Notes under the pieces: generated by a model | Told to the model about the DNA's origin: nothing | Seen by the model: only the letters and a program-made list of their open reading frames with translations | The model's database searches: none | Program-made: the position numbers and the translations under genes | Shown here: positions 2,964 through 61,182 of the stretch, one piece after another | How the letters are laid out: each line of letters opens with the position of its first letter | Position numbering within the stretch: position 1 is the stretch's first letter | DNA from: an uncultured Alphaproteobacteria bacterium | Lineage (GTDB): Bacteria; Pseudomonadota; Alphaproteobacteria; Rhizobiales; Xanthobacteraceae | Assembly (NCBI GenBank): GCA_963813825.1 | Contig: CAWFBB010000015.1 | Location: 22,702-86,701, forward strand | Direction: 5' to 3' | Length of the DNA: 64,000 nt

Positions 2964-3437
2964 TTACAACCGCATCATCGGCCGCTTGCCCTTTTCCTCG
3001 CGCGGCACTTTCACCAGCGCTTCGCCATCGAGCACCACCTGGCGCCCGACTTTGCACACGCAGGTCAGCCGCGCGCGGGATTTTTCCGGCATCAGTTCGG
3101 CCACGGTGACGATCACCGTGACGGTGTCGCCGATCTTCACCGGGGCGCGGAAATTGAGCGTCTGTGAAATGTAGATCGCGCCGGGTCCCGGCAGCCGCGT
3201 GCCGAGCACCGCCGAGATCAGGCTCGCGGTGTAGAGGCCGTGGGCGATGCGCCGGCCGAACGGCGTCCGCGCGGCAAAATGCTCGGACAGATGGATCGGA
3301 TTGCGGTCACCGGTGAGCTGCGCGAAGCCGACCACGTCGGATGCGGCGATGGTCTTCTTCAGCCGCTCGGTCATGCCGACCTTGAGGTCGTCGAAGAACA
3401 GGCTGCGCAGCGGCGGCAGGCTGGACGGAAGCGGCAT
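2964..3437 (-). CDS. MaoC-like (R)-specific enoyl-CoA hydratase / dehydratase (hot-dog fold)
   Basis: 157 aa. The GDRNPIHLSEHFAARTPFGRRIAHG motif is typical of the MaoC dehydratase domain. Confidence 0.85.
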   Translation of the reverse strand: MPLPSSLPPLRSLFFDDLKVGMTERLKKTIAASDVVGFAQLTGDRNPIHLSEHFAARTPFGRRIAHGLYTASLISAVLGTRLPGPGAIYISQTLNFRAPVKIGDTVTVIVTVAELMPEKSRARLTCVCKVGRQVVLDGEALVKVPREEKGKRPMMRL

Positions 3438-3458
3438 GGGGATGTTTTAGCATGTCTC

Positions 3459-3550
3459 GTCATTGCGAGCGCAGCGAAGCAATCCAGCGCTTAATGCACA
3501 CCGCCCCTGGATCAAGGCGCCGGGGCCGTCGTCCTTCAAGGCTCGCCATA
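3459..3550. repeat. Chimeric REP-like element (left half type A gtcattgcgagcgcagcgaagcaatccag, right half type B ggcgccggggccgtcgtccttcaaggctcgc)
   Basis: The left arm matches the repeats at 57560, 60352 and 61131. The right part matches the inner half of the repeat at 2828-2935. Confidence 0.6.
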
Positions 3551-3705
3551 GCGCGTCGCAGACGCGCGTGAGCGCGCCAGTGGCTCGCTGCAAAACCACA
3601 GAAACCAGCGATTAGCAGGCACAACTTTGCTTTTCGCGAATCTTTTCCTGGAGTGAAACGTATTGGCCGTGCGCGGCGCAGCGAATCAAATCGCGTAACC
3701 GCGCG

Positions 3706-3760
3706 ATTTATTTGAATAAATCAAAAACGCTTTGACAGCGTCTTTGTTATTTGAATAAAG
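3706..3760 (+). promoter_or_regulatory. Candidate promoter with two palindromic operators (copy 1)
   Basis: TTGACA lies at 3732-3737, with AATAAA/ATAAAG 16-17 nt downstream. It is flanked by ATTTATT-TG-AATAAAT (3706-3721) and TTATT-TG-AATAA (3747-3758). The whole block is conserved in the second copy (60910-60964, minus strand). Confidence 0.45.
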
Positions 3761-3766
3761 GCACCC

Positions 3767-4169
3767 ATCCCGCTCATCGTGAGGGACGTCAACCGGAGAC
3801 GCGGACTGACGGAGCGGGTGCGGTTCCTGCGAGCGGAGTTCGTCACTCTTTGCTCGCAGGCGGCCTGGGCATCGTACCGTCCGGTGGCTTGACCGGACTG
3901 TGAGGTGCTCACTGCACTGGCGCCGGAGAGGGTCCTCCCGTTTGGATCCGGTGATTCCAGGAAGCGCGGCCCGGGCCGAGTTTGGGATGGAGAGTCCCTG
4001 GCGCATGACCGCGGAGGAGCGCCGGAAGGCGAGCGGTCCTCTTACAGGATCGCGGCCACGTCAGGGGCTTGGTTTTCCGGACGCGGCTACCTTGGACTTT
4101 GGTGCGCCGTTCGGCGCTCCGCCTCCCTCGTTAAGGGGGCAAAAGAAACGCCTCGCTTCCGTTTGAGGC
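3767..4169 (+). ncRNA. Candidate ~400-nt structured RNA of unknown class (copy 1 of 2)
   Basis: There is no credible ORF. The sequence has dense local hairpins, for example 3769-3775/3812-3818 and 3827-3834/3852-3859, and a terminal hairpin at 4150-4169. It is repeated at 60498-60906 on the minus strand, with pairing-preserving substitutions between copies. The ends are approximate. Confidence 0.5.
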
Positions 4170-4395
4170 AAAGCCATTACAACGCCTGACAACTGCACAG
4201 CGCAAGCGCGCTGCGAGAACGGGAAAGCGCGTCATTCGCTGTGGGACGCCGCCAGACATCGGTATAACTGTGCCAGGCGCCAGTCACGCGCGAATGATCC
4301 CGGCGGTACCCGGGTGCGGCTTTACGGCGGGTTCCGGCGCGCCGCGGGCCGGAACGAGGAAATAAGTAACGCGTTGAGGTGATTGGAGGACTTTC

Positions 4396-5517
4396 TTGCC
4401 AGGATCGAAACTTTCAACCGCCGAGCGGCGCGCGGCCCTGATTGCCACAGGGCTCCTGGATTCGCCCGCCGAAGCATCCTTCGATCGCGTCACCAGCCTG
4501 GTCAGCCGCATCCTCTCCGTTCCGGTCGCACTGGTGTCGCTGGTCGACATCGACCGGCAGTTCTTCAAGAGCAGCACCGGGCTGCCCGAACCCTGGGCCA
4601 GCAACCGGCAGACGCCGCTGAGCCATTCGTTCTGCCAGCACGTCGTCACCAGCGGCCAGCCGCTCGTGGTCGAGGACGCGCGCGATCATCCCGTGGTCGG
4701 TACCAATCACGCCGTCGGCGAGCTCGGCGTGCTCGCCTATCTCGGCGTGCCGCTGACGACGCCGCAGGGTCATGTGCTCGGTTCGCTGTGCGCCATCGAC
4801 GCCAAAGTGCGGCCATGGAGCGACCAGGATGTGCGCACGATGCGCGATCTCGCCGAAATCGTCATGCGCGAAGTCGCCTTGCACCACGAGATCAAGCAGC
4901 GCGAATACGCCGAGCGGCAGCAGCACTTGCTGAACGCGGAGCTGCACCATCGCGTCAAGAATACGCTCACGGTGGTGCAAAGCCTGGTCGAGCTCTCGAT
5001 CCGCCACACCCAAAGCCTCGATGCGTTCCGCGAAAGCATCACCGGCCGCATCGCCTCGCTGGCGAAGACGCACACGCTGCTGGTCGAGGGCGAGTGGCTG
5101 TCGGTATCGCTGCGTCCGATGATCGACGGCGAACTGGAAGCGCACGAGGCCGCCAACCGCATCTCCGCCAACGGCGAAGACGTGCTGTTGCCGTCGCGCA
5201 GCGCGGTCGCGATCGGCATGGCGGTGCACGAGCTGATCACCAACGCCGTCAAATACGGCGCGCTCTCGGTGCCCGAAGGTCACGTCACGATCAGGTGGAC
5301 GACGGTGCCCAAGGCCGATGGCGACTGGCTGCTGCTCGACTGGTTCGAAGCCGACGGCCCGACGGTGCTGCCGCCAACCAACCGCGGCTTCGGCAGCGTG
5401 CTGCTCGACCGCGTGCTCAGCCCCGAACTCAACGGCAAGATCACCATGGACTTCGCGCCCGCGGGTTTGCGCGCGCGGATCGAGGCATTGTTGCCGAAGA
5501 CGGTGGGCGGTATTTGA
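4396..5517 (+). CDS. GAF-domain sensor histidine kinase, HWE/HisKA_2 family
   Basis: 373 aa; TTG start with GGAGG 7 nt upstream. It has an N-terminal GAF-like region, the H-box HHRVKNTL, and a C-terminal WFEADGP (HWE-type) motif. Confidence 0.88.
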   Translation: MPGSKLSTAERRAALIATGLLDSPAEASFDRVTSLVSRILSVPVALVSLVDIDRQFFKSSTGLPEPWASNRQTPLSHSFCQHVVTSGQPLVVEDARDHPVVGTNHAVGELGVLAYLGVPLTTPQGHVLGSLCAIDAKVRPWSDQDVRTMRDLAEIVMREVALHHEIKQREYAERQQHLLNAELHHRVKNTLTVVQSLVELSIRHTQSLDAFRESITGRIASLAKTHTLLVEGEWLSVSLRPMIDGELEAHEAANRISANGEDVLLPSRSAVAIGMAVHELITNAVKYGALSVPEGHVTIRWTTVPKADGDWLLLDWFEADGPTVLPPTNRGFGSVLLDRVLSPELNGKITMDFAPAGLRARIEALLPKTVGGI

Positions 5518-5567
5518 GTGAGTTGTTCGCTCACCAATGACGGCGCTGGCGACAAACGGAGACCGGC

Positions 5568-8100: not shown

Positions 8101-8350
8101 CCGGAAGACGTTTGCACTTGCACCGTCAGCGCGTGAGAGTTCGAAAGGACCCTCACGCGCGAAGGCGGAGCGCACCCGGCGTCCGCCGCGCCGGCGGCGC
8201 TTGCTGCCGCAGCAAGGTTGGCATCGTCTTTCCTTCCATCTTCAGAAAGCCGATGCCGCGGGGGAGGTACTTGGCGTCCCTCCCCCGATCTCGCGTGCGA
8301 TTTTTGGCAAGTCCTTGGCGCCGCACCGTTGCCACCGATCCGGCTGGGAC

Positions 8351-29734: not shown

Positions 29735-29819
29735 TGGTGCGGGCGGAGGGGCTCGAACCCCCACGACTTTCGTCACGGGAACCTAAATCCCGCGCGTCTA
29801 CCAATTCCGCCACGCCCGC
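29735..29819 (-). tRNA. tRNA-Leu (anticodon UAG)
   Basis: The reverse complement gcgggcgtggcggaattggtagacgcgcgggatttaggttcccgtgacgaaagtcgtgggggttcgagcccctccgcccgcacca has a 7-bp acceptor stem, a long variable arm, a GGTTCGAGCC T-arm and an encoded CCA. Confidence 0.95.
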
Positions 29820-52623: not shown

Positions 52624-52701
52624 CGGAGCGTAGCGCAGCCCGGTTAGCGCACCAGTCTGGGGGACTGGGGGTCCCGAGTTCAAATCTCGGCGCTCCGACC
52701 A
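52624..52701 (+). tRNA. tRNA-Pro (anticodon GGG)
   Basis: cggagcgtagcgcagcccggttagcgcaccagtctgggggactgggggtcccgagttcaaatctcggcgctccgacca has a 7-bp acceptor stem, the anticodon loop cuGGGgg, a T-arm and an encoded CCA. Confidence 0.95.
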
Positions 52702-57559: not shown

Positions 57560-57642
57560 GTCATTGCGAGCGATAGCGAAGCAATCCAGCGCTCAATGCA
57601 GCCGCTCTGGATTGCTTCGTCGCAAACGCTCCTCGCAATGCC
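57560..57642. repeat. REP-like palindromic element type A (gtcattgcgagcg..gaagcaatccag / ctggattgcttc..ctcgcaatg)
   Basis: Nested inverted repeats, intergenic. The same family occurs at 3459, 60352 and 61131. Confidence 0.7.
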
Positions 57643-57665: not shown

Positions 57666-59792
57666 TCAGCGCGCCAGCACCGCAAGCAGCAACAACGCGA
57701 CGATATTGGTGATCTTGATCATCGGATTCACGGCCGGACCGGCGGTGTCTTTATAGGGATCGCCGACCGTATCGCCGGTCACCGCCGCCTTGTGGGCGTC
57801 GGAACCCTTGCCGCCGTAATGGCCGTCCTCAATGTACTTCTTGGCGTTGTCCCACGCGCCGCCGCCCGACGTCATCGAGATCGCCACGAACAGACCGGTG
57901 ACGATCACACCAAGCAGCATCGCGCCGAGCGCCGAGAACGCCGCCGACTTGCCCACAGCGCCGCCGCCGGCGACGAAGTAGATGAGGAAGTAGACGACGA
58001 TCGGCGACAGTACCGGCAACAGCGAAGGTATGATCATTTCCTTGATCGCCGCCTTGGTCAGCAAGTCGACGGCGCGGCCGTAATCGGGTTTGTCCCTGCC
58101 CTGCATGATGCCGGGGCGCTCGCGAAACTGACGCCGCACCTCCTCGACGATCGAGGCGGCGGCACGGCCGACCGCGGTCATGCCCATCGCGCCGAACAGA
58201 TAGGGCAACATGCCGCCGAACAGGAGGCCGGCCACCACGTAAGGATTGGTCAGCGAGAAATCCGGCGCGACGCCCAGGAAATACGGGTGCTCTTTCGCGC
58301 CAGCGACGAAGAACTTGAGGTCTTCGTTGTAGGCCGCGAACAGCACCAGCGCGCCGAGGCCCGCCGAACCGATCGCATAGCCCTTGGTGACCGCCTTGGT
58401 GGTGTTGCCGACGGCGTCCAGCGCATCGGTCGACTTGCGCACTTCCTTCGGCAGTCCTGCCATTTCGGCAATGCCGCCGGCGTTGTCGGTTACCGGACCG
58501 AAAGCATCGAGCGCCACCACCATGCCGGCCAGCGCCAGCATCGTCGTCACCGCGATCGCGATGCCGAACAGGCCGGCGAGATTATAGCTGACCAGGATTC
58601 CGGCGATGATCACCAGCGCCGGAAGCGCCGTCGCTTCCATCGAAATGGCCAGACCCTGGATGACATTGGTGCCGTGGCCGGTCACCGAGGCCTGTGCGAT
58701 CGAATGCACGGGCCGGAAATTGGTGCCGGTATAGTACTCGGTGATCCAGATGATCAGCCCGGTCACCGCAAGACCGACGATGCCGCAGAGGAACAGCGTC
58801 TCCCCGGTGTAGCTCACGCCGGCCAGCGGGCCGAAGCCGATCAGCTCGTAGATCACGATCGCAATGCCGACGAGCGACAAGACCGCCGTGACCAGCAGGC
58901 CTTTGTATAGCGCGCCCATGATCGACTGGCTGGCGCCGAGCTTGACGAAGAAGGTGCCGACGATTGAGGTGATGATGCAGACGCCGCCGATGGCAAGCGG
59001 GAATGTCATCATCCGCATCAGCATATCGCCGCCGGAAGCACTGAAGAAGATCGCGGCGAGAACCATGGTGGCGACCGTGGTCACCACGTAGGTCTCGAAC
59101 AGGTCGGCCGCCATGCCGGCGCAGTCGCCGACGTTGTCGCCGACGTTGTCGGCGATCGTGGCCGGGTTGCGTGGATCGTCTTCCGGAATTCCCGCCTCGA
59201 CCTTGCCGACAAGATCGCCGCCGACGTCGGCGCCCTTGGTGAAAATGCCGCCGCCGAGACGGGCAAAGATCGAGATCAGCGAAGCGCCGAAGCCGAGCGC
59301 CACAAGCGAGTTGATCACCTCGCGGTCGTTCGCCGCCATATGCAGCCCGTCGGTAAGAAAGGCGAAGTAAAGCGTCACGCCGAGCAGCGCCAGGCCCGCG
59401 ACCAGCATGCCGGTGATAGCGCCGGCACGGAATGCGATCTCAAGTCCGCCGGCGAGCGAGCCGATCGCCGCTTGCGCGGTACGCACATTGGCGCGGACCG
59501 AGACGTTCATGCCGATGAAGCCCGCCGCTCCGGACAGGATTGCGCCGACCGCAAAACCGACCGCGACCAGCCAGCCGAGGAAATAACCGACGATGAAGAA
59601 GATCACGATGCCGACAATGGCGATGGTGGTGTATTGCCGCTTCAAATAGGCCTGCGCGCCCTCGCGCACCGCCGCGGAGATCTCCTGCATTTTCTCGTTG
59701 CCGGCGTCGGCCGCCAACACCGAGCGCGTCGCCCAGATGGCGTAGACGATCGCCAAAGCACCGCACAAAACGATGAGCCATAGAGTATTCAT
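57666..59792 (-). CDS. hppA: Membrane-bound proton-translocating pyrophosphatase
   Basis: 708 aa polytopic protein. [19 protein letters not shown] and [19 protein letters not shown] are signature motifs. Confidence 0.97.
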
Positions 59793-60351: not shown

Positions 60352-60434
60352 GTCATTGCGAGCGCAGCGAAGCAATCCAGCGCTCAATGCAGGCGGCCCC
60401 TGGATTGCTTCGTCGCAAGGCTCCTCGCAATGAC
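60352..60434. repeat. REP-like palindromic element type A
   Basis: gtcattgcgagcgcagcgaagcaatccag...ctggattgcttcgtcgcaaggctcctcgcaatgac is a near-perfect long palindrome. Confidence 0.7.
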
Positions 60435-60497
60435 GAGTTTTCTCGTTCTCGCGACGCGCTTTTGCGCCCGAGTCATTCTTCACGCTTCAAGAAAGCT

Positions 60498-60906
60498 GCC
60501 TCGAACGGACGAGAGGCAATTTGTTTGCTCCCCCGAAAACGAGGGAGGCGGAGCGCCGAACGGCGCACCTAAGTCCAAGGTAGCCGCACCCGGAAACAGC
60601 AAGGTCCGAGCGTGGCCGCGATCCTGTAAGAGGATCGCTCGCCTTCCGGCGCTCCACCGCGGTCATGCGCCGGGGACTCTCCATCCCCAACTCGGCCCGG
60701 GCCGCGCTTCCTGGAATCACCGGATCCAAACGGGAGGACCCTCTCCGGCACCAGTGCAGCGAGCACCTCGCAGTCCGGTCACGCGCCGGACGGGACGATG
60801 CCCAAGCCGCTTGCGAGCAAAAAGTGACGAACTCCGCCCGCAAGAACCGCACCCGCTCCGTCAGTCCGCGTCTCCGGTTGACGTCCCTCACGATGAGCGG
60901 GATGGG
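60498..60906 (-). ncRNA. Candidate ~400-nt structured RNA of unknown class (copy 2 of 2)
   Basis: Reverse complement of the 3767-4169 element, roughly 85-90% identical by eye. Substitutions concentrate in loops or are pairing-preserving. The ends are approximate. Confidence 0.5.
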
Positions 60907-60909
60907 CGC

Positions 60910-60964
60910 CTTTATTCAAATAACAAACACGTTGTCAAAGCTTTTTTGATTTATTCAAATAAAT
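60910..60964 (-). promoter_or_regulatory. Candidate promoter with two palindromic operators (copy 2)
   Basis: Minus strand: ATTTATTTGAATAAAT (60949-60964), TTGACA (60933-60938) and GTTATTTGAATAAAG (60910-60924). The arrangement is identical to 3706-3760. Confidence 0.45.
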
Positions 60965-61130
60965 CGCGCGGTTATGCGATTTGATTCGCTGCGCCGCGCA
61001 CTGCGAATACGTTTCACTCCAAGAAAAGATTCGCGAAAAAGCGAATTTGTGGCTGTCAATCACTGGGTTATGCGATTTTTTATGTTTTGAAATTTTTGCA
61101 AAATTAAATCAGAGGCGTCATAGCCGGGCT

Positions 61131-61182
61131 GTAGCGAAGCAATCAATCGCTCAATGCAAGCCGCCCTGAATTGCTTCGTCGC
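61131..61182. repeat. Partial, diverged REP-like element type A
   Basis: gtagcgaagcaatcaatcgctcaatgcaagccgccctgaattgcttcgtcgc retains the inner arms only. Confidence 0.5.

Follow-up and report, generated by a model that had tools for sequence, protein, structure and literature searches.

To our knowledge, few bacterial RNAs are both large and intricately folded, and those that we know of (RNase P, OLE, GOLLD, ROOL, HEARO/omega-RNA) have all led to unexpected biochemistry. We analyzed a window of 64,000 nucleotides (nt) from an uncultured member of the Xanthobacteraceae, Alphaproteobacteria (contig CAWFBB010000015.1 of assembly GCA_963813825.1; all coordinates are those of the window), which carries two inverted copies of a noncoding element, referred to here as copy 1 and copy 2. 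The original prediction, made by reading the DNA, had proposed an independently promoted, multi-copy, structured noncoding RNA (ncRNA) of about 400 nt, and comparison with Rfam, checks for insertion sequences (IS) and miniature inverted-repeat transposable elements (MITEs), covariation and open reading frames (ORFs) all favour this proposal. The element very probably belongs to a family of genes for a functional structured RNA, with more than 220 homologous copies in public genomes and metagenomes, and we give a probability of roughly 0.6 to the reading that each copy is a free-standing gene for an ncRNA of ~405 nt that would act as a folded molecule. The family is an uncatalogued RNA class as judged from Rfam and the searchable literature, neither of which is exhaustive, and it is defined purely by sequence analysis.

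The large 'ornate' bacterial ncRNAs OLE, ROOL, GOLLD and raiA have functions that are undetermined or were recently solved (PMC12286853, PMC11109978). The RNA of the window resembles them in its length of several hundred nt, its multi-helix junction and long-range helices, its invariant blocks set between covarying stems, its lack of an ORF and a function that cannot be read from the sequence. It differs from them in giving no match to their covariance models, in being alphaproteobacterial and neither phage- nor plasmid-borne, and in forming sets of diverged paralogues (2 to at least 10 per genome), every one of them with a conserved, operator-flanked promoter. OLE, ROOL, GOLLD and raiA are, as far as we know, single-copy and found mostly outside the Proteobacteria.

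Regulatory RNAs that exist as several paralogues under different promoters include the CsrB/CsrC/RsmX-Z sponges and Qrr1-5. The family resembles CsrB, RsmX-Z and Qrr in having several paralogues per genome with different upstream sites and a common body, and its size of 350-450 nt is like that of CsrB; the likeness to CsrB and Qrr is one of presumed behaviour, not of membership. The RNA contains 17 GGA triplets (10.9 +/- 3.0 expected), most of them in stems, and three A.GGA motifs. Unlike CsrB, it has a single globular core rather than repeated modules and no array of A(N)GGA hairpin loops, and because this array is missing a protein sponge of the CsrB/RsmZ type was rejected.

The alphaproteobacterial small RNAs (sRNAs) alpha-r14/'cuckoo'/CcsR and AbcR are simple hairpins of 70-150 nt with C/U-rich anti-Shine-Dalgarno motifs. 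The present RNA shares with them its taxon, its multiple copies and a conserved CCUCCC, but here the CCUCCC is one strand of a hairpin that ends a fold of ~400 nt, and there is no match to these families in Rfam. An invariant 3' module, a hairpin followed by GCCUCCCUUCUUUU, in which the CCUCCC strand pairs with a Shine-Dalgarno-like GGGAGG, presumably resembles helix 45 and the anti-Shine-Dalgarno tail of 16S rRNA; if this analogy holds, the RNA may act as a mimic of the 3' end of the ribosomal RNA and titrate the mRNAs or factors that bind there. With HEARO and the IscB and TnpB omega-RNAs, ORF-less group II introns and the IS110 bridge RNAs, it has in common that it is structured and present in many copies per genome; it is unlike these RNAs of mobile elements in having no nuclease, reverse transcriptase or transposase ORF at its loci, its own promoter, syntenic positions and no Rfam match to HEARO or introns. 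We know of no multi-copy structured RNA of a mobile element that does not travel with an ORF.

Comparison of the whole window with Rfam 15 (4227 covariance models) at the gathering threshold yielded a tRNA only, and at E<=10 the region 3400-4400 gave nothing above noise (<=20 bits). Five other family members, searched at E<=0.5, had no match on the RNA strand and a single noise match on the opposite strand (Ms_AS-8, E 0.42). The statement of the original prediction that the element matches no known RNA class thus holds at gathering and permissive thresholds alike. Likenesses seen by eye to the cobalamin riboswitch, domain IV of the signal recognition particle RNA and the T-box are unsupported by the respective covariance models. 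In the full-text literature, to the extent that it is searchable, we found no description of such an RNA in the Xanthobacteraceae or of ornate multi-copy alphaproteobacterial RNAs, nor are these taxa mentioned in a 2024 survey covering 50 bacterial genomes.

Repeat, fold and strand of the element

Blastn of window positions 3501-4300 against the window aligned the copy 1 block, 3592-4236 (+), with the inverted copy 2 block, 61079-60429 (-), at 87.5% identity over 654 nt; over the RNA part the identity is ~92%. In a MAFFT alignment the two are near-identical between ~3611 and 4170, where the gaps amount to two indels of 1 nt and one of 3 nt. Both alignments bear out the earlier observation that the block recurs, inverted, near 60498-61045, and the indels indeed break the ORF frames between the copies. 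Beyond the limits then given (3622-4170), the conserved unit continues on the 3' side for ~50 nt (to ~4221) and on the 5' side for 30 nt. An nhmmer profile of the family and, with filters off, a covariance model of the core found exactly two copies in the window: the profile matches lie at 3766-4169 and 60904-60512, and the core model scores 228.7 bits for copy 1 (3816-4048) and 238.9 bits for copy 2 (60854-60623), with the next best match at 21.6 bits. The original description as 'copy 1 of 2' is therefore correct for the window, and the family is far larger than two.

For the structure we aligned 80 copies (alignment A2) and derived a consensus with RNAalifold. The consensus fold has 81 pairs, 25 of which show changes on both sides. 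Paired cells make up 97.8%, a share that drops to 38-48% if the 3' partners are slid along by 1-3 columns, and cells changed on both sides number 334, compared with 20-41 in the slid controls, which contain 4-17 such pairs; none of 500 column shuffles reached any of the observed covariation measures. Covariation in this multi-genome alignment is thus statistically supported, as expected of a structured functional RNA, and the helices proposed from the single sequence are real: CCCGCUC/GAGCGGG, CUGCGAGC/GCUCGCAG, GUCCGGU/ACCGGAC and GGGA..UCCC undergo compensatory changes across homologues, and the variants of the GCGGUCCU..AGGAUCGC hairpin differ in both arms. About 100 nt (window ~3875-3975, 4008-4035 and 4100-4128) are invariant in the 80 copies, a conservation of the core comparable to that of a ribozyme or a segment of ribosomal RNA. 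These invariant blocks are interspersed with stems that differ in sequence but are still complementary.

The domains of the RNA are listed in Table 1. Helix P1 covaries (column pair 20/75 is U-A in 46 and C-G in 29 copies; pair 16/79 is C-G in 49, U-G in 18 and U-A in 10), and its insert has two main architectures across the family. P1 was adopted in place of the pairing of the 5' domain drawn by RNAalifold (A2 columns 16-19/82-86 and 62-64/79-81), as it covaries better. Within the core junction, variants of P5 and P4 in two members (L146 and L037) are compensatory, and P8 is dispensable because it is absent from two others (L121 and L128). The long-range helix of the 3' domain shows G-C in 76, G-U in 2 and A-U in 2 copies at pair 293/516, and the loop of the alternative local hairpin appears as GAAA, GGAA, GCAA and GAGA. 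A kink-turn in the internal loop of the invariant P6 was considered and rejected under the general rules for this motif, the position for the G of the first sheared G.A being G or C across copies. An all-against-all scan of column covariation for pseudoknots was dominated by transitions correlated with subfamily.

The strand of the RNA follows from the curated helices, in which G-U cells number 573 and A-C cells 34; canonical cells amount to 98.3% on the + strand of copy 1 and 89.7% on the other. The excess of G-U fixes the RNA strand as + for copy 1, and copy 1 is accordingly predicted to be transcribed from the + strand, copy 2 from the - strand. The original prediction had based the forward orientation mainly on its promoter-like motif and had regarded the strand as insecure; the orientation stands, and the G-U statistics and the conserved promoter now settle it.

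Table 1. Features of the two copies in the window, with predicted elements named as such.
Feature	Position	Strand	Basis or remarks
Upstream block	3592..3704	+	Common to both window copies and 'window-type' relatives
Degenerate second TTGACA-like hexamer	3612-3617	+	TTAGCA in copy 1; TTGACA in copy 2 and relatives
Operator-like palindrome GATTTATTTGAATAAATC	3705..3722	+	~10 bp upstream of -35; holds first TTATTTGAATAA
-35 hexamer TTGACA	3732..3737	+	Family-wide, at fixed distance from the RNA
Second TTATTTGAATAAA copy	3747..3760	+	Overlaps the -10 region (AATAAA/ATAAAG, 16-17 nt after -35); majority of family has TACAT there
Predicted RNA, copy 1, ~405 nt	3767..4172	+	nhmmer, covariance model, covariation, G-U strand statistics; predicted 3' end after 4150-4169 hairpin
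5' domain	3769..3818	+	P1 CCCGCUC 3769-3775 / GAGCGGG 3812-3818; ~36-nt 'type A' insert (GGGACGUCAACCGG...)
Hairpin P2, variable sequence	3827..3859	+	A2 columns 90-101/113-124: 8 of 9 pairs changed on both sides
Core multi-helix junction	3860..4012	+	Closed by long-range helix GCGGC 3860-3864 / ACCGC 4008-4012
P4	3879-3885/3891-3898	+	In core junction
P5	3900-3904/3908-3912	+	In core junction
P6, invariant	3917-3927/3947-3960	+	Inner GGG/CCC 3930-3932/3937-3939
P7	3964-3969/3976-3981	+	In core junction
P8	3982-3986/3996-4000	+	In core junction
3' domain	4013..4123	+	Long-range helix GGAGGAGCGCCG 4013-4024 / CGGCGCUCCGCC 4112-4123
Alternative local hairpin CGCC-GGAA-GGCG	4020-4031	+	Loop always GNRA
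Variable hairpin	4034-4052	+	Two arms differ together among variants
Hairpin T1	4122..4139	+	CCUCCCU strand pairs with GGGGG; in nearly all copies
Terminal hairpin GCCUC..GAGGC, terminator-like	4150..4169	+	Varied stems in window-type copies
Conserved 3' flank	4198..4221	+	Hairpin CAGCGC-AAGC-GCGCUG and CGAGAACG
Whole repeated block, copy 2	60429..61079	-	blastn, MAFFT
Predicted RNA, copy 2	60490..60904	-	Predicted start 60904; nhmmer, covariance model, terminator-like site
Promoter region, copy 2	60912..60962	-	TTATTTGAATAA at 60951-60962 and 60912-60923; TTGACA 60939-60934

Promoter, operators and 3' end

TTGAC(A/T), with at most one mismatch, is present in 147 of the 149 full-length copies (95 exact; copies of 334-486 nt among the matches listed). 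The logo of the promoter, counted over 145 copies, reads T138 T143 G145 A145 C142 A107, N17, T103 A120 C94 A100 T93, and in most members it is placed 182-186 nt before the core. The predicted start is an A (window 3767 and 60904) that lies 35 nt downstream of the hexamer's first base. The family thus has a promoter conserved at a fixed distance from the RNA, as expected of an sRNA gene, and this promoter is of the sigma70 type and apparently strong. As for the sigma70-like promoter originally proposed for copy 1, its TTGACA is confirmed and shared by the family, while the -10 of the window copies is non-canonical and drew no call from a generic scan.

The promoters are accompanied by repeated sites that differ among subfamilies. 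In the window the 12-mer TTATTTGAATAA occurs four times against 0.05 expected, twice per copy as a direct repeat spaced by 39 bp, and nowhere else; relatives carry a palindrome GATTT-N8-AAATC at the position matching GATTTATTTGAATAAATC. The candidate operator of the majority subfamily is GTCNC-N7-GNGAC flanking the -35, with a further GTCNC in the spacer, and that of a third subfamily is GGAATAAATTCC. The majority operator is probably a site for a protein rather than a hairpin, because its fourth base does not covary. Its combination with the promoter occurs 82 times in the 1.36 Mb examined; the RNA core follows in 78 of these, and the remaining four are RNA genes split by insertion sequences. 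A promoter and operators as clean as these would make the RNA gene experimentally tractable.

At the 3' end, the CCUCCC stretch pointed out originally was located at 4122-4127, and across the family it forms a CCUCCC/GGGAGG hairpin. In at least nine copies (L009, L015, L030, L033, L046, L051, L052, L062 and L068) the loop of this hairpin holds a 48-nt palindromic element resembling a MITE or a repetitive extragenic palindromic (REP) sequence (CGCATGATCCCGAAAAGTGCCGTTGCGGTTTTCGGAAAAGATCATGCG), with the arms intact. The terminal GCCUC..GAGGC hairpin that had been described for copy 1 recurs, its stems varied, in window-type copies. Copy 2 has its terminal hairpin at 60517-60498, followed by AGCUUUCUUG, and a terminator-like site at 60514-60499 with the tail CAGCTTTCTT. 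In relatives, GCUUUCUU or UUUUUU comes after either a further hairpin or a stretch of GAAGGG. The U tracts are interrupted by C. In some window-type copies a 16-nt unit, GGGGAGCAAAGACAUC, stands between the two terminal hairpins as 2-3 tandem repeats, and in others it is single (L018, L028, L036, L043 and L061).

Beyond the predicted RNA, most members are followed by a module consisting of a hairpin with varied stems and GCGAGAACG (window 4198-4221 and 60467-60444), which at most loci lies ~60-110 nt after GCGCUCCGCCUCCC. In the window this motif is found beside both copies, and two further matches with two mismatches elsewhere are at about chance level. A terminator/antiterminator switch in the tail, with GGGGAG pairing to either of two CUCCC segments, was not adopted because both window copies carry mutations in the second CUCCC.

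Distribution of the family and rival explanations

To collect homologues, we translated the longest copy 2 frame and searched the genomes of GTDB, one for each species, with the resulting degenerate DNA probe. Of 102 confirmed matches, 80 were kept; by record title nearly all are from Xanthobacteraceae, Hyphomicrobiales or 'uncultured Alphaproteobacteria' metagenome-assembled genomes (MAGs). A degenerate 29-mer from the core matched at least 120 contigs of the JGI soil and peat metagenomes, and the family profile confirmed the RNA in all 120 contigs listed. The RNA gene is abundant in bacteria that form a dominant group in acid soils and peat, and its carriers include the MAGs palsa_90 and bog_931 (L001, L014 and L023). 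Blastn found no match among PLSDB plasmids or INPHARED phages, a 20-mer of the core had none in IMG/VR, and the degenerate 29-mer matched no viral contig.

Many genomes hold several loci: one MAG (CAWARC) has ten and three others (CAVZFX, CAWBUA and CAWFLM) have eight each, and paralogues within a genome are 66-98% identical. For 53 of the 80 copies the nearest relative is in another genome (L021 and L045, for example, are 98.4% identical), and the same neighbour genes recur in 4-8 loci from different MAGs. The neighbours are housekeeping genes, among them those for a short-chain dehydrogenase/reductase, phosphoribosyl pyrophosphate synthetase, ThiC, H+-pyrophosphatase, Hsp20 and DegP. Because nearest relatives are often in other genomes and neighbours recur, this pattern of paralogues and orthologues points to an old gene family rather than to recent spread by transposition. 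Many contigs of the metagenome loci (L081-L200) start or stop within the RNA gene (matches lie, for instance, at 3-31, 18-46 or 5502-5530 of 5565), and as a repeat the family appears to break short-read metagenome assemblies, which is of practical concern. A further practical point is that gene callers are likely to mis-annotate the RNA as Arg/Ser/Pro-rich hypothetical proteins.

If each copy is a free-standing RNA gene, it would be transcribed from its own conserved promoter with subfamily-specific operator palindromes. The transcript would fold into the P1-closed 5' domain, a variable hairpin, the near-invariant core and a 3' domain with its GNRA hairpin, and would end in the CCUCCC/GGGAGG hairpin, the terminator-like hairpin and a U-rich tract. 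It could then work in trans as a globular scaffold, with the invariant core binding a conserved partner; a protein, either in a ribonucleoprotein or as a titration target, would be the most likely partner, and a small ligand or copies of the same RNA less likely ones. The amount of RNA would be set by transcription factors acting on the operator palindromes. The presence of many regulated paralogues implies dosage or signal integration, and different paralogues may feed different signals into one common activity and adjust its dose, as multi-gene sponge RNAs do. This specific mode, a protein-binding or titrating scaffold regulated at the level of transcription, is put forward tentatively, as a suggestion somewhat short of even odds.

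Several points weigh against a free-standing RNA gene. Expression, transcript ends and abundance are all predictions. No protein family is common to the loci, so none offers itself as a partner. A generic consensus promoter scan called nothing at copy 1, where the -10 is weak and non-canonical; the silence is explained by the AATAAA/ATAAAG that the window copies have instead of TACAT. Copy 1 has AAAGCCAUUAC after its terminal hairpin and no terminator was called there by the scan; the lack of a forward U-tract had been recorded correctly at the outset, and since the tract is present in copy 2 and relatives it was lost in copy 1. The ~50 conserved nt beyond the predicted terminator are not explained by an RNA gene as modelled. 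The invariant core shows no covariation, and its proposed fold draws on thermodynamic prediction and conservation. Finally, multiple copies, inconsistent orientation and breaks in assemblies would also fit a selfish repeat.

The last point leads to the explanation that the element is a MITE, resembles a short interspersed nuclear element or is derived from an IS, its conservation reflecting spread rather than RNA function. Besides the copy number, the orientation and the many metagenome contigs that end inside the element, the presence of different subtypes at the syntenic hppA locus of different genomes speaks for it. We nevertheless consider it improbable: a repeat scan of 3560-4260 found internal helices only and no terminal inverted repeats, and among the neighbour clusters no transposase, reverse transcriptase, integrase or nuclease ORF adjoins intact copies, results that also dispose of the IS or MITE origin raised as a possible refutation at the outset. 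In addition, diverged copies keep their base pairs by compensatory changes and their promoter is conserved, orthologous positions are kept across species, and real insertion sequences of the IS1595 family insert into the RNA gene and split it, theirs being the only transposases seen. About equally improbable, perhaps marginally less so, is a cis-acting leader, an attenuator of the riboswitch type that would control read-through into a downstream gene such as hppA below copy 2. At copy 2 and at six other loci of different MAGs (L006, L025, L050, L063, L073 and L078), hppA does follow the element on the same strand, and the element has consecutive 3' hairpins with a U-rich tract, in which CCCUUC can pair with AAGGGAGG or GAAGGG. 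A riboswitch or 5' leader was nonetheless rejected because in 46 of 77 loci the gene downstream lies on the strand opposite to the element; neighbours are unrelated and 2 to at least 10 copies beside them are not riboswitch-like, ~700 nt with REP-like elements separate copy 2 from hppA, and the second CUCCC that an antiterminator would need is conserved in neither window copy.

A ribozyme or RNA-only machine, in which the core, instead of binding a protein, would form a pocket for catalysis or a ligand or, like ROOL and GOLLD, an interface for oligomerisation, is rather unlikely, though less so than the two preceding explanations. It would account for a core that is invariant across paralogues differing by 5-35% elsewhere, for the multi-helix junction, long-range helices and GNRA loop, and for the lack of a partner protein gene nearby; yet it matches none of the models of known ribozymes and riboswitches and gives no indication of being processed. 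Moreover, large RNA-only assemblies known so far occur in single copy and are often carried by phages, whereas the viral contigs and the phage and plasmid records examined do not contain this RNA. The broader notion of a new class of large RNA with an activity of its own, whose core would be catalytic, ligand-sensing or self-assembling in differentially regulated paralogues numbering up to ten or more per genome, is unlikely too, with odds of perhaps one in five. A product from the opposite strand, a small protein or a type I toxin-antitoxin pair is very improbable. The folding energy of 3755-4175 is better than that of dinucleotide shuffles on both strands (z = -4.4 for the + strand and z = -4.2 for the - strand) and by itself picks no strand, and the 4150-4169 hairpin read backwards is followed by GUUUCUUUUG, as had been noted earlier; set against this are the G-U excess in the conserved helices and a promoter conserved in the forward orientation only. 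On either strand, at most 34 of the 80 copies have the stop column of any ORF of at least 25 amino acids (aa) in common, and in 79 of 80 loci no ORF with coding-type bias in third-position GC overlaps the element, in agreement with the initial view that none of its ORFs is protein-like; with frames broken between the window copies, a protein-coding gene and a type I toxin-antitoxin pair were rejected. The reading that each copy is a free-standing RNA gene remains the one that we prefer.

Surroundings of the window copies and insertions into the RNA gene

Copy 1 lies between a gene for a MaoC-domain protein (2964-3437, -) and one for a GAF-HWE_HK histidine kinase (4396-5517, +), and here the domain assignments agree with the placement first given. 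Long ORFs in different frames, 4383-5540 and 4396-5517 (+), overlap at the kinase; Pfam domains (GAF, HWE_HK) are found only in the latter, and the 385-aa frame overlapping the kinase gene is a GC-rich shadow ORF. Copy 2 is placed between an alpha/beta hydrolase operon and hppA, the H+-pyrophosphatase gene (57666-59792, -). With 56 kb between them, the copies stand in inverted orientation, their promoters directed inward, and could mediate inversion of the segment between them, which carries tRNA-Leu (29735-29819), tRNA-Pro (52624-52701) and hppA. REP-like inverted pairs based on GCGAAGCAATCCAG / CTGGATTGCTTCG give eight matches in the window against ~1 expected; they are located at 3474-3487, 57576-57620, 60367-60413 and 61134-61179 and border both RNA copies as well as hppA at its 3' end. 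The weak third match of the core covariance model (8160-8296, -; 21.6 bits, rough E 4e-4) contains GGGTGCGCTCCGCCTTC, which recalls the 3' module GGUGCGCC...GCGCUCCGCCUCCC of the family; it may be a decayed fragment or a chance product of GC-rich sequence.

Insertions were seen in several members of the family. In three loci an IS1595-family element occupies one identical site in the type-B 5' domain (L075:1812-3950, L089:3414-5350 and L163, minus strand from 2397). The inverted repeats of this element are 23 bp long (CGATGTTCCCGAACTAGACAGAC), a 13-bp duplication (CCTTTCGCGAGGG) flanks it, and its transposase has the domains DDE_Tnp_IS1595 and Zn_ribbon_IS1595. This IS1595 lineage appears to target the RNA gene site-specifically, which in practical terms would make the RNA gene its preferred insertion target. 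At another locus (L059:3941-5576) a family member is in three pieces, with insertions of ~120 nt and 1 kb, and in a further one (L095, minus strand, from 1631) an IS with inverted repeats GGGACCTATATC and an 8-bp duplication AACCAAAA sits between the -10 and P1.

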